Positions 1 to 33,718 of a stretch of 53,351 nucleotides of DNA are shown piece by piece. The notes below the pieces were generated by a model that worked only from the letters and a program-made list of their open reading frames with translations, was not told the DNA's origin and ran no database searches. The stretch comes from Clostridia bacterium (GTDB lineage: Bacteria; Bacillota; Clostridia; Christensenellales; UBA1242), in contig JAQVYC010000001.1 in assembly GCA_028708805.1 (NCBI GenBank), positions 10,404-63,754 of the forward strand. The letters are read 5' to 3'. The position numbers were made by a program, and so were the translations under genes. Positions within the stretch are counted from its first letter, which is position 1; every line of letters begins with the position of its first letter.

Positions 1-300
1 ATTCATTTTGATTATTTTGAATTAAACTGGAATTATTTGTATTTAAATTTGAATTATTTTTATTATTTTGATTTAAATTTGAATTATTTTGAATTAAATC
101 CGAATTATTTTGATTATTTTGAGAATTATTTTGATTATTTTGAGAATTATTTTGAATTAAATCCGAATTATTTTGATTATTTTGAGAATTGTTTTGATTT
201 AAATTGGATTTATTCTGATTGTTTTGAATTAAACTAGAATTATTTTGGTTATTTAAATTAGAATTATTTTGATTTAAATTAGAATTATTTGTATTTTGGC
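1..300 (-). repeat. Nested in-frame tandem repeats (21-nt and 63-nt periods) inside the Asn-rich ORF
   Basis: tgattattttgagaattattt occurs back to back at 111-131 and 132-152. gaattaaatccgaattattttgattattttgagaatt recurs at 91 and 154 (63-nt offset). Encodes QNNSQNN / NNSDLIQ-type units on the minus strand. Confidence 0.8.
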
Positions 301-2995
301 TTTTATCTAAATTAGAATTATTTATATCTTTTGGGTTTGCTTTATTATTAATATCTAAATTATCATTATTAATAGATTTGTGTCTCTTAATGCTAGAAGT
401 ATTTCTATTAATTAAATTTTCTCTGTTGTTAGTTACATTATCATTATCGTAAATTCTTGGCACAGGAGGCACACCATCTCGGGTTACTCTATTATTTTCA
501 TTGGTTTTATTATTGTTAAAGTTTTGGTCATTGTTGTTATTGTCGGTAGTATAGTTTTGGTTTCTAGTATTATTATTTAAGTTATTGTTATTGTTTATAA
601 TTTTTCTTTGATTATCATTTATAATATTTCTTTGGTTATCATTTATAATATTTTCTTGATTCTTTATAATATTATCTTGGTTATCTTCAATATTTCGAAT
701 ACTTGGATTGTTGTTATTTGTAGTATTAGTATTATTATTGTCAATGTTATTATCTTCATTATTTATATTATCGTTTAAGTTATTATTAGTTGAATGATTT
801 CTGTTATTGATATTACTGTTATTGTTATTAATCCCGTTATTCATATTATTGTTTAAATTATCCCTATGATTAAAATCGTTAATCAAATTGCTGTTATTAC
901 TTCCGTTGTAATTATTTACACTATTTGAACCATTCGCATTATTATTAAAACGGTTAAGTTGTCGCTGACTATTATTGATGTCATCTCTGTTCCTTCTAAA
1001 TTCATTATAGGGTCTATTATTAAATCTGTTATCAAGGTTTTCGGTGGTTAAATCGTTTTTATTGCTATTATTGATATTATTATCATTTTTAGTATTCCTG
1101 TTGTTAATATTATTGTCAATGTTATTACTTTCATTATTCATATTATTGTTTATGTCATTGTTAGTTGAATGATTTCTGTCATTAACATTGCCATTATTGT
1201 TATTAATCCCGTTATTGTTTAAGCTATTCTCATTATTAACATTGGTATTGTTTCTATGACTTTCATTTGTATTTAAGTTATTATCATTGTTTAAATTGTT
1301 ATTGTTGTTAGTATTGTTATTTGAATTATTATAATTGTTTAAGTTCCCATTATTAATGTTTTTATTTAAATTATTACCATTATTGACATTAGCATAGTTT
1401 TTATTTGTTACATTTTTATTTAAATTATTATCGTTATTAATATTATCATTGTTTCTATTAGCTTCGTTGTTATTTATATTACTATTTTTGTTGTTTTCAG
1501 TTAAGCTATTGTTATAATTATAGTTTATTTTATTATTTAATTTACTGTCATTGTTGTTGTAACTTTTGTTATTAAGGTTTTTATAAAAATTTGCTAAATT
1601 AAAATAGTAATCACTTAATAAATAGCAATCTTCACCAAAACATATTCCATTGTAACAATCAGTTCCAGCTATGCAAGGGCATCTATAACATGAGTCGTTA
1701 TATGAGAGTGCATTATTGATATATCCGTTATTATTTGTTGCGTTTGTATTTCCATCTAAATTTATAATGTTTTTATCTTGATTTAAATTTTTTTCGTCCA
1801 TATTATTATTTGAATTATCTTTAACTAAATTGTTTACATTATAAGCATTTCCATAATTAGTGTTGTTTATGTTTGAGTTAGTACAAGAATAAGGGTAATT
1901 TACTGCACAATTATTATCTATGCAACTTTCTAATTGCAACAAACTATTTAAAATGGATTGCAAATTGCAATTTCTTTTATCAATGCAACTTAAAAGTCTT
2001 ACATATTTAGAATTTAAAGTGTTAGAGTTCGTCTCATAATTTGTTTTCAATGTCTTGATATTTGAAAGTTCGTTGTTTAATTCCGCTTTTTCTAGATTAA
2101 TTTTATTGCAACTTAAAGATATATTATTAAGAAGGTCATTTATTGCATTAGATTGACTATCAGTAACAGTTATTTTTCCTTCTTTAATTTTGCTAGCTAG
2201 TTCTTTTATATATGCAATTTTATTTTGAATTTGATTAAGAGTATTATTACAATTATTATTACATCCAACGCATGAAGATGACATGTTTTTTGTGTTAGCT
2301 ATTTTATTAAAGGAATTTGCTGAGTTTCTTTCAGAACTATTTATGTTAGCATTAGAATTATAAGTGTCTATGTTTTTGTTAGTTCTATTATAAGTGTTAA
2401 GGTTTTTATTGGTCCCGTTATTTATATTAGTGTTTTCCTTTGTATTTGTACTATTATAGGCATTGTAATATCCGTTGTAACCACTCAAATCGTTTAAACC
2501 CATACTGCCACCACGATTGATACCGTTTTTATAAGTATCTATATTTGTTCCGTAAAAGTTTGGTATGCCATTATTGCCATAGCCATAATTGCCGTAAATA
2601 CCATTACCATAACCGTAACCGTTACCTTTACCATAACCATAACCTTTACCATAACCATAACCGTTGCCATAAAAGTTACCGTTTATGTTGTTGCCAAAGC
2701 TTCCCATACCATAAAAATTGCCATAAGTATCGGTATTTCGGTTGAAGTTAGTAACTGCAAATTCGGGATTTACATTTACTTTTAATAATGAATCGTTATT
2801 CTCATTCATTTTGCTTATTTCGCCGTTGATTGAAATATCTGAATTGTCAATTTTATTTATTTTTCTTATCTCAGTTGAAAGTCTATCCATACCATTGTTT
2901 AAATTTGAACTTACTGTTTCAATAGCAGTGTTGCCACATCCAACTAATGCAAAGCAAATAACTATTGTTATTAAACCGATAAAAATTTTTTTCAT
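2..2995 (-). CDS. Giant Asn-rich putative lipoprotein; the C-terminal end runs off the left window edge; absent from the supplied ORF track
   Basis: ATG at 2995-2993 with GGAGGA 5 nt upstream. I read all 998 codons of this frame down to position 2 and found no stop. N-terminus MKKIFIGLITIVICFALVGC is a signal peptide plus lipobox LVGC. The track omits it because there is no in-window stop. Confidence 0.8.
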   Translation of the reverse strand, partial: MKKIFIGLITIVICFALVGCGNTAIETVSSNLNNGMDRLSTEIRKINKIDNSDISINGEISKMNENNDSLLKVNVNPEFAVTNFNRNTDTYGNFYGMGSFGNNINGNFYGNGYGYGKGYGYGKGNGYGYGNGIYGNYGYGNNGIPNFYGTNIDTYKNGINRGGSMGLNDLSGYNGYYNAYNSTNTKENTNINNGTNKNLNTYNRTNKNIDTYNSNANINSSERNSANSFNKIANTKNMSSSCVGCNNNCNNTLNQIQNKIAYIKELASKIKEGKITVTDSQSNAINDLLNNISLSCNKINLEKAELNNELSNIKTLKTNYETNSNTLNSKYVRLLSCIDKRNCNLQSILNSLLQLESCIDNNCAVNYPYSCTNSNINNTNYGNAYNVNNLVKDNSNNNMDEKNLNQDKNIINLDGNTNATNNNGYINNALSYNDSCYRCPCIAGTDCYNGICFGEDCYLLSDYYFNLANFYKNLNNKSYNNNDSKLNNKINYNYNNSLTENNKNSNINNNEANRNNDNINNDNNLNKNVTNKNYANVNNGNNLNKNINNGNLNNYNNSNNNTNNNNNLNNDNNLNTNESHRNNTNVNNENSLNNNGINNNNGNVNDRNHSTNNDINNNMNNESNNIDNNINNRNTKNDNNINNSNKNDLTTENLDNRFNNRPYNEFRRNRDDINNSQRQLNRFNNNANGSNSVNNYNGSNNSNLINDFNHRDNLNNNMNNGINNNNSNINNRNHSTNNNLNDNINNEDNNIDNNNTNTTNNNNPSIRNIEDNQDNIIKNQENIINDNQRNIINDNQRKIINNNNNLNNNTRNQNYTTDNNNNDQNFNNNKTNENNRVTRDGVPPVPRIYDNDNVTNNRENLINRNTSSIKRHKSINNDNLDINNKANPKDINNSNLDKSQNTNNSNLNQNNSNLNNQNNSSLIQNNQNKSNLNQNNSQNNQNNSDLIQNNSQNNQNNSQNNQNNSDLIQNNSNLNQNNKNNSNLNTNNSSLIQNNQNE

Positions 2996-3166
2996 AAAAA
3001 TCCTCCATATTAAAATTAAAAATTATTTATTAGTTATCATATTATTTGCCAATCAATAATTTTTATGTAATTAAATTTTAAAATTAAAATTTGTTTTTAT
3101 GATGTTTTAATTTTTTTGTTTTGGTAACAATTTATAGGAAACTCATATAAGTAAAGGATTTTAAAT

Positions 3167-3613
3167 ATGGATGTAAAAACCAGAAATGAGAAATATAATC
3201 AATATGTTGAAGCGAAAATGCCCAAAACAAAAAACTGGCCTAGTCTATTCAATTCATTTTGGGTAGGCGGATTAATTTGTATTATAGGGCAGGGAATTAA
3301 CGATAGTATTTTGCTTTTATTTCCGACAATGGCAGAGCAATCAGCTTGGGCTTATACATTGGTTATCTTAATTTTCATTGCTTCATTTTTAACAGGAATT
3401 GGCATTTATGATAGAATTGGGCAATTCGCTGGTGGAGGAACAATTGTACCAATAACTGGTTTTTCAAACTCAATGACAAGCCCTGCGTTAGATTTCAAAA
3501 ATGAGGGAATAATTTTTGGAATGTGTGTAAAAATGTTTTCAATAACAGGACCAGTAATAGTTATTGGAATTGTAGCAAGTACTATTATTGGATTAATTTA
3601 CTTATTAATTTAA
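3167..3613 (+). CDS. spoVAC: Stage V sporulation protein AC
   Basis: 148-aa polytopic membrane protein with GGLICIIGQG and GGTIVPITGFSN motifs; first gene of a spoVAC-AD-AE triad; AAAGGA RBS 8 nt upstream. Confidence 0.9.
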   Translation: MDVKTRNEKYNQYVEAKMPKTKNWPSLFNSFWVGGLICIIGQGINDSILLLFPTMAEQSAWAYTLVILIFIASFLTGIGIYDRIGQFAGGGTIVPITGFSNSMTSPALDFKNEGIIFGMCVKMFSITGPVIVIGIVASTIIGLIYLLI

Positions 3614-3662
3614 TTAAGATAGAGAATAAAATAAAGAGTGACAATAAAAGTGAAAGCAAAAA

Positions 3663-4703
3663 ATGGAAAATAAATTAAAGAAAAATGAAATGAAAGCCTT
3701 AAACAATGTAAAATATAATCAAACAATAGAGTTTAAAAACAAACCAGTTATAAATGGTAATTATTCTGTTGTAGGTCCTAAGGAAGGACAGGGGCATTTC
3801 GGTAAATTTTTTCATTATGTAATGAAAAATGATTTATTTAATGAAAAAACTTATGAAAAGGCAGAGAAAAAAATGATTGAAAAAGCTTTATCAGGAGCAA
3901 TTCATTCAGCTGGGTTAAAGCCTGAAGACATAGACTTGTTTCTAGCAGGAGATTTATTAAATCAGATTATAAGTTCTAGTTATGCTGCAAGGTCTTTTGA
4001 TATCCCTTATTTAGGTTTATTTGGTGCTTGTTCAACAATGGCGGAAAGCTTGGCAATAGGCTCTTGTTTTATTGATGGAAAATATTTTGATACAGTCGCG
4101 TGTGCAACAGTGAGTCATTTTTCAACCGCTGAAAGACAGTTTCGGTTTCCGTTAGAACTTGGAAATCAGCGTCCACCAACATCACAATGGACAGCCACAG
4201 CCAGTGGCAGTACTATTTTATCTTTAAAAGGGCAAGGTCCGCGCATTACAAAGGCAACATTTGGTAAAGTTACCGATTATGGAATTTCCGATGTTAATAA
4301 TATGGGAGCGGCAATGGCTCCTTCAACAATGAGTACGATGGTTGCACACTTTAAGGATACAAAAACAAAACCCGAAGATTTTGATTTAATAATAACAGGA
4401 GATTTAGGAAAAATAGGGAGTGAAATTTTAATAGATTTAATGGAAGATAAAGGATATAAATTAGGCATAAACTATTGCGATTGTGGTCAGATGATTTATA
4501 AAGAAAAACAAAAACCTTTAATGGGGGGCAGTGGTTGTGGTTGCAGTGCGTCTATTTTAAATTCATTTATTATAAATAAGTTAAGAAAAAAAGAATATAA
4601 GAAAGTACTTTTTATGGCAACGGGAGCATTGTTGAGTACAACCGCAACTCAGCAAGGGGAAACAATTCCAGGTATAACTCACGCAGTTGTTATTGAAAGT
4701 TGA
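3663..4703 (+). CDS. spoVAD: Stage V sporulation protein AD (thiolase-like fold)
   Basis: 346 aa with GPKEGQG near the N-terminus and a GACSTM motif; sits between the spoVAC and spoVAE homologues. Start could be the internal Met at 3690. Confidence 0.9.
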   Translation: MENKLKKNEMKALNNVKYNQTIEFKNKPVINGNYSVVGPKEGQGHFGKFFHYVMKNDLFNEKTYEKAEKKMIEKALSGAIHSAGLKPEDIDLFLAGDLLNQIISSSYAARSFDIPYLGLFGACSTMAESLAIGSCFIDGKYFDTVACATVSHFSTAERQFRFPLELGNQRPPTSQWTATASGSTILSLKGQGPRITKATFGKVTDYGISDVNNMGAAMAPSTMSTMVAHFKDTKTKPEDFDLIITGDLGKIGSEILIDLMEDKGYKLGINYCDCGQMIYKEKQKPLMGGSGCGCSASILNSFIINKLRKKEYKKVLFMATGALLSTTATQQGETIPGITHAVVIES

Positions 4704-4830
4704 TTGGAAGTTTTTATTCTATAAAATCATTGTGTAGTGGTGCTATGCAATGCATAGTAACTATATATAGATATTTAAGTTAGAATTTATAATAAAATTT
4801 AAAAATAAAATAATAACAGGGGGCGGCTTT

Positions 4831-5193
4831 ATGTTAACCTATTTATGGGTATTTCTTATTGGTGGTGCTGTTTGTGCAATTGGTCAGCTATTGATTATTA
4901 AAACAAAATTCACTTCGGCTAGAATTTTGGTTACTTTTGTAATGATTGGAATTATTTTAGAAGCTTTTGGGTTGTTTGACAAAATTGCACAATTTGCAAA
5001 AGCGGGAATCAATGTTCCTATTATCGGGTTTGGGGCATCATTAACAAAAGGTGCAATTGCAGGTGCTGAAGCCAAAGGCATTATTGGAGCAGTAACAGGT
5101 GGGTTAGAAGCAGTTGCAGCTGGTGTAACTGTTGCAGTGTTATTTGCCTTTATTTTTGGTTTGATATTTAAAGCAAAAACGAAAAAAAATTAA
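4831..5193 (+). CDS. spoVAE: Stage V sporulation protein AE (SpoVAEB type)
   Basis: 120-aa membrane protein paralogous to 3167..3613 (LIGGAVCAIGQ, VPIIGFGASL); GGGGG RBS upstream. Confidence 0.85.
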   Translation: MLTYLWVFLIGGAVCAIGQLLIIKTKFTSARILVTFVMIGIILEAFGLFDKIAQFAKAGINVPIIGFGASLTKGAIAGAEAKGIIGAVTGGLEAVAAGVTVAVLFAFIFGLIFKAKTKKN

Positions 5194-5273
5194 CTTAAAC
5201 ATTATTTAAGAAAGCCATCAGTTTTTGTATATTCAATACAACATTTCATAATTATCATCATATATATTATTAA

Positions 5274-5951
5274 ATGAAGTCTTGGAAGGGAAAAAAGAGA
5301 TTATCATTAAGGGCTAAAGCAATAATTATTCTTTGCTTTTTTCTTTGTTTTATTGTTTTATCAATTCTTTATTTAGCTAATATTGTTAATCCTGTTATTT
5401 ATCAAGCAACCGAAGCACAAATTAAATCTTCTGCTCAAAAAGCATTAAGCTCTGCTGTTTATTCTATCGTTTCATCCAATACGGATACTTACTCAGATAT
5501 AATTAACTATACTTATAATGACAAAGGGGCTGTTTCACTTATAAAAGTCAATTCTTATTATGTAAATATTTTGTCAAGAAAAATAGCTGCTTTGGCTCAG
5601 GGAAATATTGATAATGTAGTCAATTCAGGTATTAATGTTCATTTGGGGGCATTTTCGGGAATAACTGTTTTAGTTAATTTAGGTCCGTCCGTTACAATGG
5701 ATTTAAATTCAATAGGCACAGTTACAACAATTTTTCGTTCAGAATTTTTAAATGCAGGAATTAACCAAACAAACCACAGAATTTATGTTAATATAAAAAG
5801 TTCTGTATGTGTTGTTTTGCCAATTTATAGCCCTACAATAGAAACTGAAACTGAAATTTTAATAGGTGAAACAATTATAGTAGGAGAGGTTCCATCAACT
5901 TATTTGCAATCTTCTTATCTTGATGAAATGCTCAACTTAGTGCCTCATTAA
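5274..5951 (+). CDS. yunB: Sporulation protein YunB
   Basis: N-terminal TM anchor. C-terminal region matches my recollection of B. subtilis YunB (LGP-x-V, IG, GIN-x5-I, GEVP-x2-Y). Confidence 0.7.
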   Translation: MKSWKGKKRLSLRAKAIIILCFFLCFIVLSILYLANIVNPVIYQATEAQIKSSAQKALSSAVYSIVSSNTDTYSDIINYTYNDKGAVSLIKVNSYYVNILSRKIAALAQGNIDNVVNSGINVHLGAFSGITVLVNLGPSVTMDLNSIGTVTTIFRSEFLNAGINQTNHRIYVNIKSSVCVVLPIYSPTIETETEILIGETIIVGEVPSTYLQSSYLDEMLNLVPH

Positions 5952-6074
5952 TACTCTTTAAAACAAACCATAAAAGGTAAATGGGTTCTTATACAACACT
6001 ATTATAAAGAATATTTTATTAGTTTTTATATATTAAAATGAAAATAAAGTTATTAGCTTAATTTAATTAAATCA

Positions 6075-6103
6075 TTGAAAAAAAATGTATACCATGTTAT
6101 AAT
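6075..6103 (+). promoter_or_regulatory. SigA-type promoter upstream of ftsK
   Basis: TTGAAA (6075-6080), 17-nt spacer, TATAAT (6098-6103) with TGT immediately upstream (extended -10). Confidence 0.5.
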
Positions 6104-6141
6104 TAACATTATAATTAAAGCAAGTTAAAGTTCGAGGCAAT

Positions 6142-8691
6142 ATGGCATCTTTTGATTTAAGCACTCATAAATTCAATGAACCAAAAAATTCAAAAACAAA
6201 AATTATCGGAATAGTTATAATAATCATCTGTTCTGTTGCTTTTTTAGTTCTTTTTACTAACCTGCTCCCGTTCTTGCAAAGAATAATTCTAGGATTAATG
6301 GGCTTATTTGCCTATCCGTTTTTTATTGTTGCCTTTTCGGTTGGAATCGCACTTATTAATAACAAACGCTATTTAATGACAAAGAAATATATAGTTTATT
6401 TATCTTTAATTATATTGTGTGTTCTTGCTCTTTTAAATTTGGTTATATTAGGCAAGCCGAGTATTCCTTTTTTTGATTACTTATCGCTTTCTTATGAGCA
6501 ACAATATACTGGTGGCGGTTTAATAATTGCATTATTTATTACTCCATTTCTTTATATTTTAGGACTTGCTGGCACAATTATTATATTTTCTGTTGCTTTG
6601 GTTATTTTTATTGCTCTTGTTGTTGATTTTCTAAATACTATAAGAATTTACGGAAAGCAAATTTTGAAAGAAAACAATACTAAAAACAAAGAAATTAAAC
6701 TTATGGAAGTTTTAGACATAATAAAAAAAGAACCTCAAAAAGAAAATTTGAATAAAAAGCAAAAAGATGTTTCATTAAAAAATGATTTTAATTTGTTTTT
6801 AGATAAGAAAATGGAAGAACAACGCAACATTAATATTGAAGCAAAGCGAAGATTAGGTTTAATTGAAGGTAATCTTGATAGTGAAAAAGCTCCTAAAAAA
6901 GTTAAAACAATTAGAGAAATTTTATTAACCCCGCCCGCCCTAGATTTAAAAAATTTAAACAATTCTTATAACAGAAGAATTAGAGAACAAGAAATTAATA
7001 GTAATTTCCAATTATTGAAGCAAGAAAATATTAATACTATTTTAGATAACTCAAACAATCAACGACAAAATCTAACTGAACATAAAAACTTCGAAACAAA
7101 CAAAGAAACTTCTATCCTTGGGCAGAATGAAAATATATTGAACTCTGAAAAACCGAAAAGAACTTTTGCCCAACTTCAAATCGATAGCGTTAAAAATGAA
7201 AAACCTCAGCTATCTAAAAATGTATATCGCCGTCCGCCAAATTATTCTAGACCGCCATTAGATTTATTAGAAAACAGACCTGTGGATTTAACATCTTTAA
7301 ATGAAGATGTCGTCGGTAAACGAATTCAGCTTGAAAGAGCCTTAGAAACATTCGGTATTAACGCCCGTGTTATTGGCGTTGTAATAGGACCTTCGGTTAC
7401 AAGATTCGAACTAGAAATGCCACCAGGAATAAGTGTTAAAAAAATCATTGCACATAAAGATGATATTTCATTGGCTTTAGCTTCTAGGGCTGGCTTGCGA
7501 ATTGAAGCTCCGATTCCTGGGAAAAGTGCGGTTGGCATTGAGCTTCCAAACGATAACATTAGCACAGTTAGCATTAGAGAAATAGTAGATTCTGATGAGT
7601 TTTTGTCTAACAAATCTCCAATTACTTTTGCTTTAGGTAAAGATATTAACGGTGAAGTTAAAATTTGCAATTTAGCAAAAATGCCACATTTACTTGTAGC
7701 AGGAGCTACAAATTCAGGTAAAAGTATTTTTTTAAATTCTTTAATTATAAGTTTAATTTATAAATCTTCACCTGATGAAGTGAGATTAATTCTAATTGAC
7801 CCCAAAAGAGTTGAATTTTCAATGTATAATGGTTTACCTCACTTAGTCATTCCTTATGTAATTACAGAAACCGAAAAAGCTAGCAATGCTTTAACTTGGT
7901 CAATTAATGAAATGGAAAGAAGATATGAAATTTTTGCAACAAATAGATGCCGTAATTTAGAAGAATATAATCAATTAACAAATGTTGTTTCGGGCGAAGA
8001 AGAAAAATTGCCATACATTGTGATTGTAATTGACGAATTTAACGACCTAATGTCCGTTATGAAAAAAGAAATTGAAGAAAAAGTAAAACGCCTAGCACAA
8101 AAAGCACGAGCTTCTGGAATTCATTTGGTTCTCACAACTCAAAGACCATCTGTTGATGTAGTAACTGGCACAATAAAAACCAATTTCCCATCTAGAATTT
8201 CATTTGCTTTAACATCTTTTGCAGACTCTAAAACAATTTTAGATCAATCAGGAGCAGAAAACTTATTAGGAAAAGGTGATTTACTCTTTTTGCCATCAGA
8301 TGCAAATTTCCCAACCAGAATACAAGGATGTTTTGTTTCGAACAATGAAGTAAATGATGTTGTGGCTTATATAAAAGAAAATAATAAAAAGACATATGAC
8401 GAAGAAGCAGAGAAAGAAATAGAAAATCCTTATCAAGGCTTGGTTGATGAAGAAATTTCTGATCAAGCATTAACTCCGTTGGCAATAAAATGTTTGAAAT
8501 TTGTAATAGAAAACGGTCAAGCATCAATTTCTTCTCTTCAAAGGAATTTTGCAATTGGCTTTGGAAGGGCAGGCCGTATTATTGAAAAATTAGCAAAGTT
8601 AGGCTATATTGCTAAGAAAGACGGAATGAAACCAAGGGAAGTTTATTTAACAATGGAAGGTTTCAATAATTTATTTGGAGAAGAGAAATAA
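6142..8691 (+). CDS. ftsK: DNA translocase FtsK/SpoIIIE
   Basis: N-terminal TM helices, low-complexity linker, motor domain with Walker A GATNSGKS, C-terminal gamma winged-helix (LQRNFAIGFGRAGRIIEKL). Confidence 0.93.
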   Translation: MASFDLSTHKFNEPKNSKTKIIGIVIIIICSVAFLVLFTNLLPFLQRIILGLMGLFAYPFFIVAFSVGIALINNKRYLMTKKYIVYLSLIILCVLALLNLVILGKPSIPFFDYLSLSYEQQYTGGGLIIALFITPFLYILGLAGTIIIFSVALVIFIALVVDFLNTIRIYGKQILKENNTKNKEIKLMEVLDIIKKEPQKENLNKKQKDVSLKNDFNLFLDKKMEEQRNINIEAKRRLGLIEGNLDSEKAPKKVKTIREILLTPPALDLKNLNNSYNRRIREQEINSNFQLLKQENINTILDNSNNQRQNLTEHKNFETNKETSILGQNENILNSEKPKRTFAQLQIDSVKNEKPQLSKNVYRRPPNYSRPPLDLLENRPVDLTSLNEDVVGKRIQLERALETFGINARVIGVVIGPSVTRFELEMPPGISVKKIIAHKDDISLALASRAGLRIEAPIPGKSAVGIELPNDNISTVSIREIVDSDEFLSNKSPITFALGKDINGEVKICNLAKMPHLLVAGATNSGKSIFLNSLIISLIYKSSPDEVRLILIDPKRVEFSMYNGLPHLVIPYVITETEKASNALTWSINEMERRYEIFATNRCRNLEEYNQLTNVVSGEEEKLPYIVIVIDEFNDLMSVMKKEIEEKVKRLAQKARASGIHLVLTTQRPSVDVVTGTIKTNFPSRISFALTSFADSKTILDQSGAENLLGKGDLLFLPSDANFPTRIQGCFVSNNEVNDVVAYIKENNKKTYDEEAEKEIENPYQGLVDEEISDQALTPLAIKCLKFVIENGQASISSLQRNFAIGFGRAGRIIEKLAKLGYIAKKDGMKPREVYLTMEGFNNLFGEEK

Positions 8692-8742
8692 TAGGAAAAA
8701 GAATAAATTAAATTATATATAAACATTAAATAAGGAAAAATT

Positions 8743-10302
8743 ATGACAAAAGAAGAATTGGTAAATAAAAAAATATCCGCCATAAGTTTAGGGTGTGATA
8801 AGAATAAAGTCGACTTAGAACATATGCTTTTTTCATTGCAAGATTATGGTTTTCAAATAATAAGTGATATAAGCAATGCGGAAATATTAATTGTAAACAC
8901 ATGTGCTTTTATTCAGCCAGCAATCAAAGAAACAATTGAAAATATAAATTTAGCATTAAAACAAAAAACAATTGGTAAAGTGGAAAAAATTATTATATCA
9001 GGATGTTTTCCGCAACGAAATATCAATATATTAAAAGATAACTTTCCGCAAGTCGATTATTTTTTAACGCTAAATGAAAATGATAAAATTGTAAATGTAA
9101 TTGAAAATCTATATGAAGTTGCTTCCAGCAACTATTGCGTGGACCAAACTGGAAGATTGGTAACTCACGGTGGGAAATATGCTTTCTTGAAAATTGCGGA
9201 TGGTTGTTCAAATGGCTGTGCTTATTGCACAATTCCTCGAATAAGAGGGAGGTATCGTTCCATTCCTATTAATTTATTAATTAAAGAAGCAAAAAGGCTT
9301 GCATCCAAAGGATATAAAGAATTAATTTTAATTGCTCAAGACACCGCAAATTATGGAGATGACTTGTATGGCGAGCCAAAATTAATTGAACTTATTGAAA
9401 ATTTATCAAAAATAAATGGAATAAAATGGATTAGACTTCAATATGTTTATCCAAACTTGTTAACTGATGAACTTTTAGATTTTATTGCCAGCGAAGAAAA
9501 AGTTTGTAAATACATTGATATGCCTCTTCAACATATTGATAATGATATTTTACTATCAATGAACCGAAAATTAGATGAAAATAGCACTTTAAAATTAATA
9601 GAAAAAATTAAAACAAAATACCCTGAAATGATAATAAGAAGCACTTTTATTGTTGGGTTTCCGGGCGAAACTAGAAAAAAATTTCAAAAACTATGTGATT
9701 TTATTTCAACTGGTATTATTGATTATGCAGTATTTTTTCCGTATTTTAGAGAAGAAAACACAAAGGCATATTATATGAAAAATCAAGTATTGGAGTTTGT
9801 TAAAAAACGCAGATTAAAAAAAATAGAAGCAATTCAAAATATGGTGATTAATGTTAAAAATCAAGAGAAGCTAAATAAAATTGAAGAAGTGTTGATTGAT
9901 GAATACGACCCAATAGAAAAAATTTTTAAAGGACATAGCAAAAACAATTCGCCTTTGATAGATTTGTGTGTTATAATAAAAGCGAAACAAGAACTCGTTG
10001 AAAATGAAATTTCAATATTAGATGACAATCAAATTCAAAATGAAGAAAATGAAACGACTAATCAAAATAATGTAGCAGAAATTGAGGTTCAAGATAATAG
10101 AAAACCAAGTATTTTTAGAAACATTTTCAAAAAAATTAAAATCGGATTTAATAAATTAACATCAAATTATAAAACGAAAGATGAAGAACAATATACTTTG
10201 GTGGAAGATGATGACCAGCTAATAAATGTTAAAGTTGGTGAAATTTACAATGTGAAATTAATCGAAATAACAGATTCTGGATTTATAGGGGAAATTGTTT
10301 AA
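8743..10302 (+). CDS. rimO: Ribosomal protein S12 methylthiotransferase RimO, with an insertion in the TRAM domain
   Basis: MTTase N-terminal cysteines (SLGC, NTCAF, SGCF), radical-SAM CSNGCAYC, C-terminal TRAM-like ends. The rimO-pgsA-recA order is typical of Firmicutes. Confidence 0.85.
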   Translation: MTKEELVNKKISAISLGCDKNKVDLEHMLFSLQDYGFQIISDISNAEILIVNTCAFIQPAIKETIENINLALKQKTIGKVEKIIISGCFPQRNINILKDNFPQVDYFLTLNENDKIVNVIENLYEVASSNYCVDQTGRLVTHGGKYAFLKIADGCSNGCAYCTIPRIRGRYRSIPINLLIKEAKRLASKGYKELILIAQDTANYGDDLYGEPKLIELIENLSKINGIKWIRLQYVYPNLLTDELLDFIASEEKVCKYIDMPLQHIDNDILLSMNRKLDENSTLKLIEKIKTKYPEMIIRSTFIVGFPGETRKKFQKLCDFISTGIIDYAVFFPYFREENTKAYYMKNQVLEFVKKRRLKKIEAIQNMVINVKNQEKLNKIEEVLIDEYDPIEKIFKGHSKNNSPLIDLCVIIKAKQELVENEISILDDNQIQNEENETTNQNNVAEIEVQDNRKPSIFRNIFKKIKIGFNKLTSNYKTKDEEQYTLVEDDDQLINVKVGEIYNVKLIEITDSGFIGEIV

Positions 10303-10340
10303 ATTTAAAGAAAAGTTTATTATTTAAAGGAGATTAAGAC

Positions 10341-10949
10341 ATGACACCTAATCAAATAACTTTAATAAGGATATTTTTAGTGCCTTTTATGATATTTTTT
10401 TATCTTGCAGATTTTATTCCATATGGAAAATTAATTGCTGTTATTATTTTTGCTCTCGCAGCTATTACAGATTTCATTGATGGAAAGTTGGCCCGTAAAA
10501 CTGGAAAAGTAACCGACTTAGGCAAATTTTTAGACCCGATTGCAGACAAGGTTTTAGTGATGAGTGCTTTAATTTTAGTTGTAACAAGTCAAATGATTGT
10601 TAGTATGTGGGGAACTTGGGCAGCTATTATTGCAATTATAATTATTGCAAGAGAGTTTTTAGTGAGCCTATTAAGGCAAGTTGCTGCGAGCAAAAACATA
10701 ATTCTTTCGGCTGACAATTGGGGTAAATATAAAGCATTTTTACAAGATTTAGCAATTCCAGCATTTATGCTTTTAGTTTTTTTTGTAAATTATAATATTT
10801 TAACAGGAACTTGGCTGATGGCTTACATTTATTTTTGTTATTTATTAATAGCAGTAGCAACTTTACTTACAATTATTTCAGGAATTAATTATTTTATAAA
10901 GAACAAACATGTTTTTTGTGAAGGAAAAGAAAAAAACAATAAAATATAA
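10341..10949 (+). CDS. pgsA: CDP-diacylglycerol--glycerol-3-phosphate 3-phosphatidyltransferase
   Basis: CDP-alcohol phosphatidyltransferase motif [27 protein letters not shown]; multiple TM helices; AGGAG RBS. Confidence 0.9.
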
Positions 10950-10960
10950 GGAGATTATAT

Positions 10961-12001
10961 ATGGCGGATAAAAAGCTAAATGAGGATAGAAAAAGAAATT
11001 TAGAGCAAGCTTTACTTGAAATTGAAAAGCAATTTGGTAAAGGTTCAATTATTAAATTAGGGGATAACCCTAAGCGTTCTATTGATGTTATTTCAACAGG
11101 TTGCTTAACACTTGATGTCGCACTTGGTATTGGTGGTGTGCCTAAGGGTAGGGTAATTGAAATTTATGGTCCTGAGTCTTCAGGAAAAACAACTGTTGCT
11201 TTGCATATTGTAGCAGAGGCTCAAAAATTAGGAGGCACTGCGGCTTTTATTGATGCCGAACATGCTCTTGACCCTATTTATGCTAAAAAATTAGGTGTTG
11301 ATGTGGATGAATTGTTTGTTTCACAGCCTGATAATGGTGAGCAGGCTCTTGATATTTGCGATACTTTAATAAGTAATGGAGCCGTAGACATAGTTATAAT
11401 TGATTCTGTTGCTGCTTTAACTCCTAGGGCTGAAATTGAAGGCGATATGGGGGATAGTCATATGGGGTTACAGGCAAGGCTTATGAGTCAGGCGCTTAGA
11501 AAGTTAACCTCTGTTATTAATAAGAGTAATGCTTGTGTTGTTTTCATAAATCAGTTGAGAGATAAAATTGGGGTTATGTATGGTTCACCGGAAACAACAG
11601 CGGGTGGAAAGGCATTGAAATTTTATTCTAGTATTAGGCTTGATGTTAGAAAAGGGGAGGCACTTAAAAACGGTACGGAAATAATTGGAAATAGAACTAA
11701 AGTAAAAGTTGTAAAAAACAAATTAGCTGCTCCTTTTAGAATCGCAGAATTTGATATTATATTTGGCGAAGGAATTTCAAAATCTGGTGTTGTTCTAGAC
11801 TTAGCAATTGAATTTGATTTGATACAAAAAACTGGCTCTTGGTATTCATATAAAAATGAAAAAATTGGTCAAGGCAAAGAAAATGCTAAAAATTTTATAA
11901 AAAGCAATCCAGAAGTATATAATGAGTTGGATTCAATTATTCGAAACAAATTATTTAATGAAACCGAAAATGAGAAATCTGAAAAAAAAGCAGATAATTA
12001 G
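10961..12001 (+). CDS. recA: Recombinase RecA
   Basis: Near-canonical RecA sequence with Walker [10 protein letters not shown] and the FINQLR motif; AAGGAG RBS. Confidence 0.98.
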
Positions 12002-12086
12002 ATAGATATTTTTAGTAGGAACTTACCGCTCTGTATTTACATTTAGGTGAGAAACTTATCCAACTAAATTATTTTTTTTGAAAAAC

Positions 12087-12170
12087 AAAAAATCGCCGAT
12101 AGCAGAAGGCTCTACAAAGCTTGAAATAGCACTTAATGCTGCCTAAATCTCTTCGGTGATTTTTTATTTT
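12087..12170. terminator. Long branched hairpin between convergent recA and the PBP gene; likely bidirectional terminator
   Basis: aaaaaatcgccga (12087-12099) pairs with tcggtgatttttt (12153-12165), 12 bp with one G-U. It encloses an inner agca-cttaa-tgct hairpin, with an A-run upstream and a T-run downstream. Confidence 0.5.
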
Positions 12171-12235
12171 ATGGGCTTGTTTCAAGTTTATTAGTTTAAT
12201 CAAATGTTAAATTAATTAATTTTTTAACGAATTTT

Positions 12236-14500
12236 TTAAATATACCATTTTTCCTTTTTGTCGTTTACAATATTTTGTTTGTTGTAGAGTGTTAAAGTAT
12301 TACTTTTTTCTTCATTAATTATTATTCCATTACTGTTTTTTAATTTAGTAATCACATAATAATTTATTTTTTCTCGTTCATTAATATCATCATTAATTAT
12401 AATTTCTCCCTTTGTACCTGAAATTGATTTAATTAGTTCTGATTTTTCTCCTTTTTGCTTATATACTTCATATTGTAAATAATTACTTGCATCAAAAACT
12501 AAAATAGCTCTATTGTTTTTTATACAACCTGTTAAATTTGCAGGAAGAGTGTTAAACTCAGAACTTACAATGTTTTTGGGTGGATTAAACCTTGAAAAAA
12601 GTTCTTTTTTAATATAAATTTCAGGAGTTAATGAATTCGCAATTGAGATATTGTGATTATTTTCATATTCATTTAAATCTAAATTAATTTCTTCAACAGA
12701 GTTAGGTTTTTCAAAGTTTTTAGGTAATTTTTTAGAATAAATTTTTTCAAAATAGTCTCGAACAAGTAAAGTGGGTAAATTTCCACCAGCGGTATCTATA
12801 AGATTATTATCCATATTTCCAACCCAAACACCAACAACATTTTGTGTCGTGTAAGATATATTGTAAGCATCGGTGTTACCTTTTTTTGTTCCAACAGTTC
12901 CAGTTTTAGAAGATACATCAAAAGGCAGCACATTTAATTTTCGAGCAGTTCCTTCTATTACACAAGTTTTTAACATATCTGTTGCTAAAAAAGAACTATC
13001 TTCACGGAAAATGGTTTTTGCTTTTTCATCGTTCTTATAAACAATTTTACCCTCTTTTGTTGTTATGTAATGCACAAATTTAGGCGAAATATGTTTACCT
13101 TTATTTGCAAGAGAAATATAACCACCTACAAGTTTCTTTAAATTAATTCCATATGTCATTCCTCCCAATGTTAATGCATAATTATTATCTTGTGTGTCTA
13201 AATCAATATCTAACAGATTGGCATACTTTTTAATTTTATCTAATCCAAGATAAGAAGCAATTTTAACTGCGGATACATTTAACGATTTAGAAAGAGCTTC
13301 TCGTGCACTTATATAGCCATAATATTTCTCTCCAATATTTTTAGGTTCATAACCATTTATTGAAATAGGTTCATCTAAAATTAATGTTGCAGGTGAAATA
13401 ATATCTTCGTTTATCGCTGGGGCATAAACTAGAATTGGTTTAATGGTTGAACCCGGTTGCCTTTTATGTTCTAAAATTTTATAATCACTTTTACCTATGT
13501 AAGCTAATATTCCACCATTAAGCGGGTTAATATCAATATAAGCAAAATCGTTTTCAGACAAACTTTCATTATATTCCTTTATAGTTTTTTCAATGCTTAT
13601 TTGATTATCTAAGTTTTGATATGTATAAACTTTATAACCCCCAATTGCAATTTGTTTTTCGGGCATTTTTAAAATTTGCATAGCTTCATCAATTGCACCT
13701 TGCGAATAAGAATTTAATTTGTTTTTTCTAGTTTTATTTATTTTAATCTCTAAGTCTTTTGCTTTTTCAAGTTTATAAACCTCTTCGGGTATGAAACCAT
13801 CAGTTTTCATTTCTCTTAAAACAACATTTCTTCTTGTAAGGCATCGTTCATATTGTTTTACGGGCGAATAAAAATTAGGTGATTTTATCAGACCTGCTAG
13901 CATAGCACTTTCAGAAATGGATAAATCTTTTGCGCTTTTTGAAAAATAATATTCACTCGCATTTTCTAAACCATAACAATTACTTCCAAAATAAATTATA
14001 TTTAAATAGTTTTCTAAAATTTCATCTTTTGTAAAATTTCGTTCTAGGTCTAGGGCAAGCGAAATTTCATTTAATTTTCTAGATAAGGTTTTTTCGTTGG
14101 TTAAATGTGTGTTTTTTATTAATTGTTGACTAATCGTTGATGCGCCTTCCATTAATTTTAACTTTTTTAAATTGTTGAAAAAAGCTTTTCCTATTCTTTT
14201 AACTGAAATGCCATTATGATTATAGAAAGCTTTATCTTCAATTGAAATAAAAGCTTGCTTTGTATGAATTGGTATATACTCTAAGTTAATTTTAGTTCCA
14301 TTAAAAGTATTTGGTTCGTTAATTAATAAATTTTGTTGATTTAATACTTGAATAGATAAATTATTATCTGTGATTGCCTCTTTATTAAAAGGAATCCTCA
14401 TAAATGTTAATGAATAAATACAAATTCCAATAAATGAAAGTATTAAGATAATAACAAGACATATTAAGATCTTGAAACTTAAATTTACAATTTTCTTCAT
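12236..14500 (-). CDS. Class A penicillin-binding protein (glycosyltransferase plus transpeptidase)
   Basis: GT51 motifs EDKAFYNHNGI and GASTISQQL; transpeptidase motifs STIKP, SLN, KTGT. The track start at 14557 is a TTG; the ATG at 14500 (MKKIVNLSF..., TM anchor) is more likely. Confidence 0.88.
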   Translation of the reverse strand: MKKIVNLSFKILICLVIILILSFIGICIYSLTFMRIPFNKEAITDNNLSIQVLNQQNLLINEPNTFNGTKINLEYIPIHTKQAFISIEDKAFYNHNGISVKRIGKAFFNNLKKLKLMEGASTISQQLIKNTHLTNEKTLSRKLNEISLALDLERNFTKDEILENYLNIIYFGSNCYGLENASEYYFSKSAKDLSISESAMLAGLIKSPNFYSPVKQYERCLTRRNVVLREMKTDGFIPEEVYKLEKAKDLEIKINKTRKNKLNSYSQGAIDEAMQILKMPEKQIAIGGYKVYTYQNLDNQISIEKTIKEYNESLSENDFAYIDINPLNGGILAYIGKSDYKILEHKRQPGSTIKPILVYAPAINEDIISPATLILDEPISINGYEPKNIGEKYYGYISAREALSKSLNVSAVKIASYLGLDKIKKYANLLDIDLDTQDNNYALTLGGMTYGINLKKLVGGYISLANKGKHISPKFVHYITTKEGKIVYKNDEKAKTIFREDSSFLATDMLKTCVIEGTARKLNVLPFDVSSKTGTVGTKKGNTDAYNISYTTQNVVGVWVGNMDNNLIDTAGGNLPTLLVRDYFEKIYSKKLPKNFEKPNSVEEINLDLNEYENNHNISIANSLTPEIYIKKELFSRFNPPKNIVSSEFNTLPANLTGCIKNNRAILVFDASNYLQYEVYKQKGEKSELIKSISGTKGEIIINDDINEREKINYYVITKLKNSNGIIINEEKSNTLTLYNKQNIVNDKKEKWYI

Positions 14501-14605
14501 ATTTATATTATGGTATGTATAAAGTAATTTATGCTTATAATAAAGTTGATTTTTCAACTTATATTCATATATTAATAATTTAATTTTACAAAATATCTAG
14601 ATTTT

Positions 14606-22095: not shown

Positions 22096-23139
22096 TTATT
22101 TGTCATTCTTTACTCGCAAATTTACTTGGTTTGCGGCATTTTTTCTTATATCTTCGCTTATTGCAGCATAATGTTTTTTTGTTGTATTAACATCTTTATG
22201 ACCCAAAACATCCGCAACAATATATATGTCTTTTGTAGCCCTATAAAGATTAGTTCCGTATGTGCTTCTTAATTTATGAGGACTTATATTTTTAAGCGGG
22301 GAAGCAGGTTTGGCATATTTCTTAACTAAATTCTCAACAGCTCTCACAGATATTCTCTTGTTTTGTAATGAAATAAAAAGAGCGGTTTCCGTTTTAGGTA
22401 AATTTTTCAATGTTCTAATTTCAAGCCAATCTAATAAAGCAATTTTTACTTCATCTGAAAAATATAAGATTGTCTGATTTCCCCCTTTTCTAGTTACTTT
22501 AAAAGAATTTGATTCGAAATCAATATTATCAATATTAATTCCAACGAGTTCGCTAACTCGAATTCCAGTACCTAAAAACAAACTTAGAATTGCGACATCA
22601 CGCTCACGAGTGTTTTTTAAATAAGCTCTTTGTCTGTCGGTTAAGTCATTTGCGGTTTCTGCTTGATCCAAAATCTTAATGATTTCATCAACTTCTAATC
22701 TTACAATAGATTTTTCGTGTATTTTAGGTGTGGTAACTTTACTGGCAACATCAAATTTAATCTTGTCGTTATTGTATAGATATTTAAAAAGACCTCTTAT
22801 GCTGGCAAGCTTTCTAGCTTTACCTTTTTCGTTATTTTTATAATTTTTTTCATTGTAAGTATAATAAGATAAGTAACTTAAAAATGAAATTATATCAGAG
22901 GCGGTAATTTTTTCAAGATGTGAAAAATTAATTTCTTTGATAGGTATTCCAAATTTATATTTAGAAATAAAATCAAAAAAAATTCTTAAATCTAAGGTAT
23001 ATCCTAATCTAGTCAAGGAAGAAGTATTATTTTCAATTTCATATATAAAATTAGTACAAAAAGGTGGCAACTCCATAAGGCTTGCTGAAATTTTATCAGT
23101 ATTAATTCTGTCTTGTTTTATATAATAATTATTTTTCAC
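22096..23139 (-). CDS. Tyrosine recombinase, XerC/XerD family
   Basis: Catalytic set is visible: GIRVSEL (Arg), KGG (Lys), HKLRST (His-x-x-Arg), LGHKD (His), KHY (Tyr). The start is uncertain: GTG at 23139, or the ATG at 23076. Confidence 0.8.
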   Translation of the reverse strand: MKNNYYIKQDRINTDKISASLMELPPFCTNFIYEIENNTSSLTRLGYTLDLRIFFDFISKYKFGIPIKEINFSHLEKITASDIISFLSYLSYYTYNEKNYKNNEKGKARKLASIRGLFKYLYNNDKIKFDVASKVTTPKIHEKSIVRLEVDEIIKILDQAETANDLTDRQRAYLKNTRERDVAILSLFLGTGIRVSELVGINIDNIDFESNSFKVTRKGGNQTILYFSDEVKIALLDWLEIRTLKNLPKTETALFISLQNKRISVRAVENLVKKYAKPASPLKNISPHKLRSTYGTNLYRATKDIYIVADVLGHKDVNTTKKHYAAISEDIRKNAANQVNLRVKNDK

Positions 23140-26090: not shown

Positions 26091-26129
26091 ATAAATATAA
26101 ATATTGTAAGTAAAGTGAGGTATTATTTT

Positions 26130-33465: not shown

Positions 33466-33718
33466 CTTTATAAATTTTTCCTTGAATTGCCATTGTGTTT
33501 TGTGATAATGTTCTTAACAATAAATCTTTACCTTTAACTTCTATTGTGCCATTTTTTACTTTAAAAATAATTTTTTCGGAGGATATTAAAACAACGCCCA
33601 TATGACCTTCTATATATAATAAATTTCCGGAAATGTTCACTAAATTATAAGATTTAAAAATATTCTCCGAAAGGTTTAATTCTTTTACCAACTCGCTAAA
33701 ATAATTAAATACATTCAT
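33452..33718 (-). CDS. yqfC: Sporulation protein YqfC
   Basis: 88 aa; the pattern ISGNLLYIEGHMGVV...IEVKGKDL...IQGKI matches the YqfC family; paired with yqfD. Confidence 0.8.
   Translation of the reverse strand: MNVFNYFSELVKELNLSENIFKSYNLVNISGNLLYIEGHMGVVLISSEKIIFKVKNGTIEVKGKDLLLRTLSQNTMAIQGKIYKVEVF

Follow-up and report, generated by a model that had tools for sequence, protein, structure and literature searches.

A giant Asn-rich predicted lipoprotein gene divergent from the spoVA operon of a Clostridia bacterium and its unnamed, probably sporulation-linked family

An unlisted open frame at the left end of the window

We analyzed a 53,351-nt stretch of contig JAQVYC010000001.1 (assembly GCA_028708805.1, Clostridia bacterium), hereafter the window, whose left end carries on the minus strand a very long gene for a predicted lipoprotein, transcribed divergently from the sporulation operon spoVA. 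The frame runs from an ATG at 2995-2993 to position 2, and its translation confirmed what had been described in the initial annotation of the window, namely 998 codons with zero stops, whereas each of the other five frames across the same 3 kb contains between 63 and 245 stops. In DNA with 28% GC a stop-free run of 998 codons is far beyond chance, and comparison with the stop counts of the other frames excludes a chance origin. The listing of open reading frames (ORFs) shows just three short plus-strand ORFs over the gene (37-237, 2545-2745 and 2742-3059); the gene itself is missing because the ORF lister omits frames that run off an end. The third of these ORFs, a 105-codon frame with a TTG start that overlaps the 5′ end of the lipoprotein gene, its ribosome-binding site and its promoter region, is almost certainly spurious. 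Direct reading of the start region (...atatGGAGGAtttttATG) corroborated the previously reported GGAGGA 5 nt ahead of the ATG, as well as the divergence from the spoVA operon, with 171 nt between the lipoprotein start and the spoVAC ATG at 3167.

It had been proposed that the frame be extended leftwards to its stop, and this was possible on a near-identical public contig, JAQUFC010000001.1 of assembly GCA_028684835.1 (L001), located by exact-protein look-up of the neighboring SpoVAC. L001 is 99.6% identical to the window over 13.6 kb and reads past its left edge, revealing a complete gene of 1240 codons with stop at L001:6107-9829 on the minus strand. After the Asn-rich zone, the L001 protein continues with a Lys/Glu/Gln/Ser-rich stretch and ends in ...NENQYENNKSLTA (...ENNKSLTA). 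The gene is convergent with spoIIAA-spoIIAB-sigF in L001 and fills, on the opposite strand, the entire gap between the spoIIA and spoVA operons. By comparison with L001, the full window gene would span 1240-1261 codons, with the window frame corresponding to the first ~80%. Since the window starts within a 63-nt tandem-repeat array of the gene (window 1-290) that the L001 contig traverses without interruption, the truncation likely reflects a short-read assembly break at the repeat and no biological end. A scan for intrinsic terminators at the 3′ end of the gene in L001 returned nothing, and Rfam and tRNA scans of the window produced no matches. That the gene is real we regard as virtually certain. 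The features identified in and around it are compiled in Table 1.

Table 1. Features of the lipoprotein gene and its divergent neighbors (window coordinates)
Feature	Position	Strand	Basis or remark
Asn-rich low-complexity spacer, residues 481-998, 46% Asn	2..1555	-	Nested in-frame tandem repeats; cut by window edge
Extra 63-nt (21-codon) unit NNSQNNQNNSQNNQNNSDLIQ	137..199	-	In window, absent from L001; protein alignment, 63-nt period
Cys-rich mini-domain SCYRCPCIAGTDCYNGICFGEDCY and aromatic stretch, residues 436-480	1556..1690	-	Translation, composition
Family-defining helical domain, residues ~220-375	1871..2338	-	Predicted long antiparallel helices, nine Cys
Predicted disordered Gly/Tyr/Asn segment, residues ~59-222	2330..2821	-	pLDDT <35, motif positions, repeats
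Conserved helix alpha-1 (predicted), precursor residues ~22-44	2864..2932	-	AlphaFold2 mature 2-24; family alignment
Start codon, predicted signal peptide MKKIFIGLITIVICFALVG and lipobox Cys20	2936..2995	-	Translation
Ribosome-binding site GGAGGA	3001..3006	-	5 nt before start codon; direct read
Promoter-like element ACATA-N17-AATAATA	3040..3068	-	Positional counterpart of orthologue box
Divergent operon spoVAC-spoVAD-spoVAE	3167..5193	+	Shares 171-nt control region with lipoprotein gene
yunB	5274-5951	+	After spoVAE

Layout of the predicted lipoprotein and its family

The N-terminus of the product (MKKIFIGLITIVICFALVG-C) combines a basic n-region, a 15-residue hydrophobic core and a lipobox L-V-G-C ending in Cys20. 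This layout (MKK-IFIGLITIVICFA-LVG-C20) satisfies a PROSITE PS51257-type rule, defined as [LVI][ASTVI][GAS]-C within the first ~35 residues and scored by eye and by regular expression. An equivalent lipobox was matched by the regular expression in 139 of the 152 listed family members on which all family statistics below are based, and the product is accordingly predicted, as it was in the initial annotation, to be a Sec/signal-peptidase-II lipoprotein. The four compositional zones and the nested Asn-rich repeats noted previously were recovered by zone-wise composition and by Tandem Repeats Finder. Residues 91-180 contain 31% Gly, 20% Tyr and 20% Asn, residues 241-480 constitute a helical, Cys-bearing zone with 15 Cys within 242-457, and Asn makes up 46% of residues 481-998 and 35% of the window protein overall, compared to an average of 8.0% in the 29 other genes of the window. 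The Gly/Tyr zone harbors GYGYGK-type repeats (2599-2672) and is accompanied by four N-x-[DN]-T-Y motifs, NTDTY (2723-2737), NIDTY (2531-2545), NLNTY (2390-2404) and NIDTY (2360-2374), starting at residues 87, 151, 198 and 208.

For the mature conserved module, AlphaFold2 predicts four helices (mature residues 2-24, 200-251, 259-299 and 304-340) with a block-mean predicted local distance difference test (pLDDT) score of mostly ~86-97. Block pLDDT values over mature residues 1-30 are 75, 97 and 90, and mature residues 39-202, corresponding to the Gly/Tyr zone, score below 35 and are predicted to be disordered. A model of the helical domain only, based on a 28-sequence alignment, attains a pLDDT of 91.6 and a predicted template modeling (TM) score of 0.82. 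The structure prediction and Foldseek search suggested in the initial annotation for the N-terminal module thus point to a helical bundle with non-significant neighbors. Among the best 50 of 351 and the best 50 of 410 matches to the PDB obtained with the whole-module and domain-only models, Foldseek reported generic helical bundles only (best E 0.05-0.1, TM <0.5), with Borrelia BBH37, gp41 mimetics and vinculin tails in the top rows, and a sequence-profile search of the PDB returned nothing meaningful. BBH37-type surface lipoproteins of the Borrelia PFam12 family, the top neighbors, share with the predicted module a lipid anchor and antiparallel helical bundles, but the matches are non-significant (E 0.05-0.6, TM 0.1-0.3, 11-14% identity) and indicate a resemblance in fold class only.

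A search with residues 21-483 identified six homologues of 447-695 residues with 29-38% identity. All six are lipoproteins by alignment and share a common layout, in which an N-terminal helix is followed by VPNYNRNTDTYGN, a Gly/Tyr/Asn zone, GTNIDTYR, one or two KNINTY, a domain of ~140 residues with the consensus LKTxILxNISY...SKYxRLLxxLDxRNxYLQNILxSLLQxE and a variable tail. An exhaustive profile search against 1.84 billion cluster representatives, with the window sequence among the alignment seeds, extended this group to 262 proteins (clusters) at E≤1e-3 and 128 at E≤1e-10, with E-values of independent members down to 1e-138 and the helical domain as the common core of the matches. At least two NxDTY-type motifs occur in 130 of the 152 listed members, which have a median length of 460 residues, a maximum length of 907 residues and a maximum Asn content of 25%. 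The comparison of gene length across relatives, also suggested at the outset, places the window copy at the extreme of the family, with at least 998 residues (1240-1261 in full) against the listed maximum of 907 and 35% Asn against 25%. A Cys-rich segment equivalent to the mini-domain of Table 1 is retained as CYGCPCIDGTDCYNGICFGENCY in a more distant relative, L020, and analogous CxxC/NGxC-rich segments follow the helical domain in three family members (P0005, P0010 and P0024).

The order of the modules differs among subfamilies. P0006, P0028, P0037 and P0042 (e.g. at loci L013 and L014) have helix 1 and the helical domain ahead of the NxDTY motifs and Gly/Tyr block, whereas in the window subfamily this block separates helix 1 from the remaining helices of the bundle. 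Because helix 1 abuts the helical domain in P0006-type members and is confidently predicted in the window protein despite a disordered insert of 160 residues, we infer that it forms part of the helical bundle and that the Gly/Tyr block is an insertion.

Searches of the window protein, the full L001 protein and 55 relatives against Pfam and NCBIfam revealed no shared family, only scattered single chance matches. The only source name for any relative is 'hypothetical protein [Clostridia bacterium]', a protein search with the 28-sequence domain alignment returned two proteins, and no description of the family was found in the literature searched. Genome matches correspond to uncultured Clostridia metagenome-assembled genomes (MAGs) and to Candidatus Caccopulliclostridium gallistercoris, which has been placed in GTDB order 4C28d-15, family UBA1242 (PMC8035907). 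By these searches, the family appears to be undescribed and restricted to uncultured, AT-rich, spore-forming Clostridia, and we assign the window gene to it with great confidence. The initial statement that no family could be recognized in the protein therefore stands for named families (Pfam, NCBIfam, PDB) and fails in that an unnamed family of 262 clusters exists. The novelty of the gene is not removed by homology to a well-characterized family, the matched family being itself uncharacterized. The suggestion of an orphan inflated by AT bias loses its footing, given that the first ~375 residues have family relatives in at least 262 clusters and that the other window proteins average 8% Asn.

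Genomic context and promoter-like elements

In the window, the lipoprotein gene is neighbored by spoVAC, spoVAD, spoVAE, yunB and ftsK. Examination of 12 distinct loci, sampled from the 262 clusters (window/L001, L003, L004, L005/L010, L007, L013, L014/L015, L016, L017, L019 and the L018 fragment), found the gene divergent from spoVAC in all of them; on the short L018 contig, a 20-residue upstream fragment (MDVEERNKKYKEYVNIKIPK) corresponds to the SpoVAC N-terminus. The linkage to spoVAC holds in members with profile E-values as weak as ~1e-9. The other flank is variable, with DUF2207/LemA in place of sigF in L014/L015 and an unannotated gene in L013, indicating that the conserved linkage is to spoVA and not to sigF. 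Downstream of the divergent operon, spoVAE and yunB are retained in the window, L014, L016, L017 and L019, and in L003, L004, L005, L007 and L010 ftsK apparently follows spoVAC-spoVAD directly, without spoVAE or yunB (in L007 and L010 as judged by ORF sizes only). L010 is placed in family UBA1242.

The regions upstream of the lipoprotein gene share a promoter-like box. Of 13 upstream regions, nine contain the pattern [GA]NATA-N17-CAAACTA, its end lying 15-31 nt from the ATG, and 12 contain a relaxed form. By shuffling, an average of 0.0075 such loci is expected, and a count of nine never arose in 2000 shuffles. The loci carrying the box are phylogenetically related, and the distant ones are not alignable outside it. 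The sigma-G consensus of Bacillus subtilis is GHATR-17/18-CATXHTA. CAAACTA matches six of the seven -10 positions of this consensus at the right spacing. In Clostridioides difficile the sigma-G consensus has been stated to be very similar to that of B. subtilis, and spoVAC is sigma-G-dependent (PMC3789822). The yunB gene of the same loci displays CATA-type -10 boxes (e.g. CATACAAT in L016) that are unlike CAAACTA and argue weakly against sigma-E control of the lipoprotein gene. A sigma-70 scan detected no site on the strand of the gene at its 5′ end, which constitutes weak negative evidence. As judged from these motifs, a sporulation-sigma promoter is likely and the forespore type is favored over the mother-cell type. 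The spore-associated reading offered in the initial annotation agrees with both the conserved spoVA synteny and the sporulation-type promoter motif of the orthologues.

The intergenic region also contains, on the spoVAC side, a conserved element of its own, GTTTAA-N~16-(T)TGCAATAATTA, just before the ribosome-binding site, seen in the window (2996-3166) and in the equivalent regions of L004, L005, L006, L007, L012 and L019. This element differs from the lipoprotein-side box. The two -35-like elements, on opposite strands, lie end to end or overlap in L005, L007 and L012. At 32263-33718, on the minus strand, the window encodes the sporulation genes yqfC (YabP family) and yqfD, and an AAATA-N17-AAAACTA match lies 126 nt upstream of yqfC.

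These observations bear on a different account of the gene, which had also been raised initially, namely that it encodes a vegetative cell-surface matrix or adhesin lipoprotein whose long Asn-rich and Gly/Tyr-rich regions mediate gut adhesion or contribute to a biofilm matrix, its position beside spoVA being mere inherited order. In its favor, the protein couples a lipid anchor to a very long extracellular region that is disordered, varies in its repeats and evolves fast, as surface proteins under diversifying selection typically do. The highest-ranking Foldseek neighbors, although non-significant, comprise Borrelia surface lipoproteins with helical bundles and surface receptors of trypanosomes. 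Against this, the head-to-head linkage with spoVAC is kept among members with ~25-35% identity, even where the sigF neighbor has changed, and the conserved upstream box is not sigma-A-like. Furthermore, no adhesin or Ig-like domain and no LPXTG wall-anchor, SLH or CWB2 domain was found with Pfam in the window protein or in 55 family members, and the L001 C-terminus (...ENNKSLTA) lacks an LPXTG motif. We consequently consider an adhesin role improbable. Membership in the S-layer, LPXTG or adhesin families was rejected on the same Pfam results, and a collagen-like or exosporium protein was discarded for the absence of GXX repeats.

Elsewhere in the window, a phage-integrase-family gene lies beside lexA in a region that includes a 311-residue ORF without Pfam match and a 531-residue protein with an N-terminal PadR domain only (22096-23139 on the minus strand; 24638-25573 and 26115-27710 on the plus strand). 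This region could be a small integrated element.

Variation of the Asn-rich spacer and interpretation

The tandem-repeat structure of the gene is nested, with periods of 21/42/63 nt at 5-290, 24/45 nt at 587-694, 33 nt at 1060-1149 and 54 nt at 1218-1481 in the tail, and of 6/18/24 nt at 2599-2672 in the Gly/Tyr zone. In addition to the extra repeat unit of the window copy (Table 1), the window and L001 proteins differ at seven amino acids, namely G58D, T183A and five positions of the tail, and are alike throughout the signal peptide and the helical domain. All seven changed codons in this gene (486-2823) are nonsynonymous, in comparison with two nonsynonymous and nine synonymous in the nine flanking genes (3167-14557). 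Fisher's exact test, computed by hand, gives p ~0.001, or ~0.008 when one codon with two hits has its second-position change scored as synonymous. The comparison of the two strains indicates that repeat expansion is ongoing and in-frame, under relaxed or diversifying selection.

The more distant relative L020 (Logan SRR29050538 contig, 208-3414) exposes the same gradient over a longer distance, with 87% identity to the window in the helical domain, 65% in the N-terminal disordered part and ~35-42%, with many gaps, in the tail. Embedded in the tail are islands shared by both proteins: the Cys knot (CY.CPCI.GTDCYNGICFGE.CY), RFNNR...NRFNNNAN, TRDGVxPxPxIY, a stretch of ~45 residues (NLxVxDxLFTKNDxKxKESLLxSAPxFEKGKRLNSDV), IKRKxPFNSDTLPKxLDN and the C-terminus. 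In L020 the gene is split across frames 1, 2 and 1, with the two compensating frame changes flanking the helical domain exactly and all segments open through to ...ENNKSLTA. These frame changes could represent an assembly error, a real frameshift pair or recoding.

Conservation of the C-terminal peptide extends to much shorter relatives. Over their final 32 residues, the L001 protein and P0005 share 63% identity, although the two are 33% identical overall and the tail of P0005 is ~500 residues shorter. The ending NSI[LF]NENx[HYQ]ENNK[SA]LTA is common to L001 and eight clusters of 313-695 residues (P0005, P0012, P0017, P0018, P0020, P0023, P0027 and P0057), the 3′ end of the window copy lying off the edge. 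Other subfamilies present C-terminal peptides of their own, ...P[IV][IV]A[HY] in ~21 members by a loose regular expression, ...NRGTVNNGINTL in four and IAGE[KR]IA in four, and P0054, P0064 and P0068 are among the members with such subfamily-specific endings. By their sequence, these C-terminal peptides look like docking or recognition motifs. The persistence of a conserved peptide beyond a hypervariable spacer implies that the spacer is translated and its frame maintained, while the length and sequence of the spacer appear to be largely free.

These results can be confronted with the proposal that the frame is a decaying or non-functional ORF, open only because AAT/AAC-rich repeats are stop-free in frame, with the product, or its last ~800 residues, devoid of any role. 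Asn-codon repeats are indeed intrinsically stop-poor in frame, the coding changes between strains are all nonsynonymous, L020 carries two frame changes and the window copy is a far outlier in length. However, conservation is strong in the signal peptide, the helical domain and the Cys knot, with E-values to 1e-138 and 87% identity of the helical domain in L020, and the helical domain is spared by all inter-strain substitutions. The indels between strains are in-frame multiples of the repeat unit, and the C-terminal peptide and tail islands could not be conserved unless the entire spacer were translated. The L020 frameshifts, in turn, compensate each other and leave every segment open. We deem this explanation very unlikely. 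A pure AT-bias artefact was likewise rejected, since with 8% Asn in neighboring proteins the AT bias of the genome is by itself inadequate to account for the composition of the tail. Among Asn codons, AAC makes up 26% in the tail versus 22% genome-wide, providing no sign of special translational selection.

The best characterized analogue of the tail is GerG (CD0311) of C. difficile, in which ~30% of residues are Asn, arranged in strain-variable repeats that gel in vitro and are dispensable for function (PMC5241399). Both GerG and the window family are lineage-restricted and tied to the spore, the former by experiment and the latter by gene position. Both contain ~30% or more Asn in low-complexity tandem repeats of strain-variable number that are predicted to be disordered or prion-like (PMC5241399), and replication slippage in an AT-rich genome has been proposed for GerG as it is here for the tail. 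The differences are substantial, with no sequence relationship detected: GerG repeats are GMPNNMSNNMNSNM units within a protein of ~270 residues, roughly a third of the length of the tail in the window gene; GerG is under sigma-E control, has not been described as a lipoprotein, lacks both a helical-bundle domain and NxDTY motifs, and is not located beside spoVA.

The GerG precedent lends some credence to the prion-like reading, raised in the initial annotation as well, by which the Asn-rich tail would work as a gel-forming, prion-like or amyloid domain and self-assembly would be the main activity of the protein, for instance as a hydrogel layer between the spore membranes. At 518 residues or more, the tail contains 46% Asn and 5% Gln and is poor in hydrophobic residues, GerG contains a prion-like domain called by PLAAC (PMC5241399), and the frame is kept through ~870 residues up to a conserved C-terminus. 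Yet the repeats of GerG can be dispensed with (PMC5241399), tail length ranges from ~145 to ~870 residues within the subfamily and Asn reaches at most 25% elsewhere in the family, so that the extreme composition is no family requirement. Although N+Q amounts to 51% over 518 residues, ~17% are charged and Ile+Leu contribute 12%. The differences between strains, all nonsynonymous or in copy number, fit relaxed constraint. Self-assembly as the main activity is thus quite a poor prospect in our estimate, and by analogy with GerG most of the giant tail may be tolerated and not required.

Regarding its folded part, the family seems to be analogous to, and not homologous with, GerG and the other known accessory proteins GerD, YlaJ/YhcN and GerS. 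GerD of Bacillus is an all-alpha-helical, forespore-made lipoprotein at the outer face of the inner spore membrane, where it acts as a germination scaffold (PMC11841064). In both molecular type and location it corresponds to what is proposed here for the window family, and Clostridia are without GerD. No Pfam or NCBIfam match to GerD was obtained for the window protein or 55 relatives, and no GerD chain appeared among the PDB sequence matches or the Foldseek rows listed, its presence in the PDB copy used being unchecked. GerD is also short (~180 residues), is not known to carry a disordered tail and is not linked to spoVA. YlaJ, YhcN, YutC and CoxA (Pfam Spore_YhcN_YlaJ) are lipoproteins expressed in the forespore and located in the inner spore membrane that influence Ca-dipicolinic acid (DPA) release and germination (PMC11841064). 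Matches to Spore_YhcN_YlaJ or TIGR02898 were absent at E≤0.1 for the window protein and among 55 relatives, and the folded domain differs, being a predicted helical bundle in the window family. Several members of the YlaJ/YhcN family carry Asn/Asp-rich low-complexity linkers after the lipobox. GerS of the Peptostreptococcaceae is a further lineage-specific lipoprotein that is induced during sporulation and acts in the cortex region of spores of Clostridia (PMC5241399), but it is sigma-E-dependent, shows no detectable homology, has no low-complexity tail and resides in another genomic context. The family described here is therefore new to Pfam, NCBIfam, the PDB and the literature searched, although a lipoprotein with a low-complexity region at a sporulation locus is a known kind of protein.

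On balance, we find it reasonably probable that the gene encodes a sporulation-expressed lipoprotein of the forespore intermembrane space with a disordered spacer, a function proposed from its context. From the constant pairing with spoVAC and the sigma-F/G-like box of the orthologues we infer sporulation-specific expression and export. A link of the gene to sporulation is quite probable, a location of the protein in the forespore compartment specifically is a tentative assignment on which we are nearly evenly divided but lean against, and any specific molecular role must be considered doubtful at best. The family module would consist of a lipid-anchored Cys, an N-terminal helix and a three-helix domain of ~140 residues forming together a helical bundle, an NxDTY-bounded Gly/Tyr/Asn segment, a small Cys-rich knot, a variable spacer and a C-terminal peptide (...NENxYENNKSLTA in this gene). 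Transcribed in sporulation and exported, the product would be held by its lipid anchor on a membrane face bordering the intermembrane (germ-cell-wall/cortex) compartment of the forespore, in the region of the envelope that also houses the SpoVA dipicolinate channel; if driven by sigma-F or sigma-G, this would be the outer leaflet of the inner spore membrane. The helical bundle may serve as a constrained functional interaction module and the Gly/Tyr and Asn-rich regions as disordered, possibly self-associating or gel-forming, spacers that project the C-terminal peptide, giving the protein an accessory or scaffolding role in assembly of the spore envelope, in DPA transport or in germination. In this 28%-GC genome, the spacer has grown to ~870 residues by in-frame slippage and duplication of Asn-rich units, a process still active between strains.

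Several observations weigh against this interpretation. The degenerate box of the window is indistinguishable from chance (19 relaxed matches versus 12 expected) and, being unremarkable, leaves the promoter argument to the orthologues only. In these, CAAACTA departs at one and the same position from the -10 elements of sigma-G (CATNNTA) and sigma-E (CATACA-T), and the latter is not a much poorer match, keeping mother-cell expression in consideration. Synteny with spoVA could be inherited gene order devoid of functional coupling, and the predicted fold, clear in class, is a generic helical bundle that offers no functional clue. The window copy is truncated, its own C-terminus being deduced from the 99.6%-identical L001, and all family members come from metagenome-derived assemblies, whether MAGs or contigs from metagenomes and read sets. 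Finally, the three-frame gene of L020, if real, would make the gene dispensable in that strain.

Within the sporulation reading, a more specific and speculative version, which we rate as unlikely, would view the family as a lineage-specific spore-envelope component functionally coupled to the SpoVA dipicolinate channel. The Gly/Tyr and Asn-rich segments would then constitute a layer, gel-like or tethering, between the membranes, the C-terminal peptide would dock on a partner, such as a PDZ-type protease or a cortex or outer-membrane protein, and the hypervariable spacer would set the reach of the tether. If so, no known tether of this kind would be longer than that of the window gene, with its ~870-residue spacer.

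The gene exemplifies a practical problem in the annotation of metagenomic assemblies: it is missed by ORF callers that drop edge-running frames, short-read assemblies break in its repeats and neither Pfam nor NCBIfam holds a model for it. It is also among the most extreme bacterial Asn-rich low-complexity expansions, visible between two strains with 99.6% identity and bracketed by conserved sequence, and thereby furnishes a clean case for asking whether Asn-rich spacers are selected or tolerated. Accessory proteins of the spore inner membrane are known mostly from Bacillus (GerD, YlaJ/YhcN, SpoVAF/FigP) and C. difficile (GerS, GerG), and each newly studied lineage has turned out to use its own lineage-specific factors. 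The combination of an unannotated conserved family, a fixed position beside spoVA and a promoter box constitutes a guilt-by-association lead for the biology of the spore envelope and DPA transport, and the gene may provide an entry point to such a lineage-specific factor for a large block of uncultured gut Clostridia.

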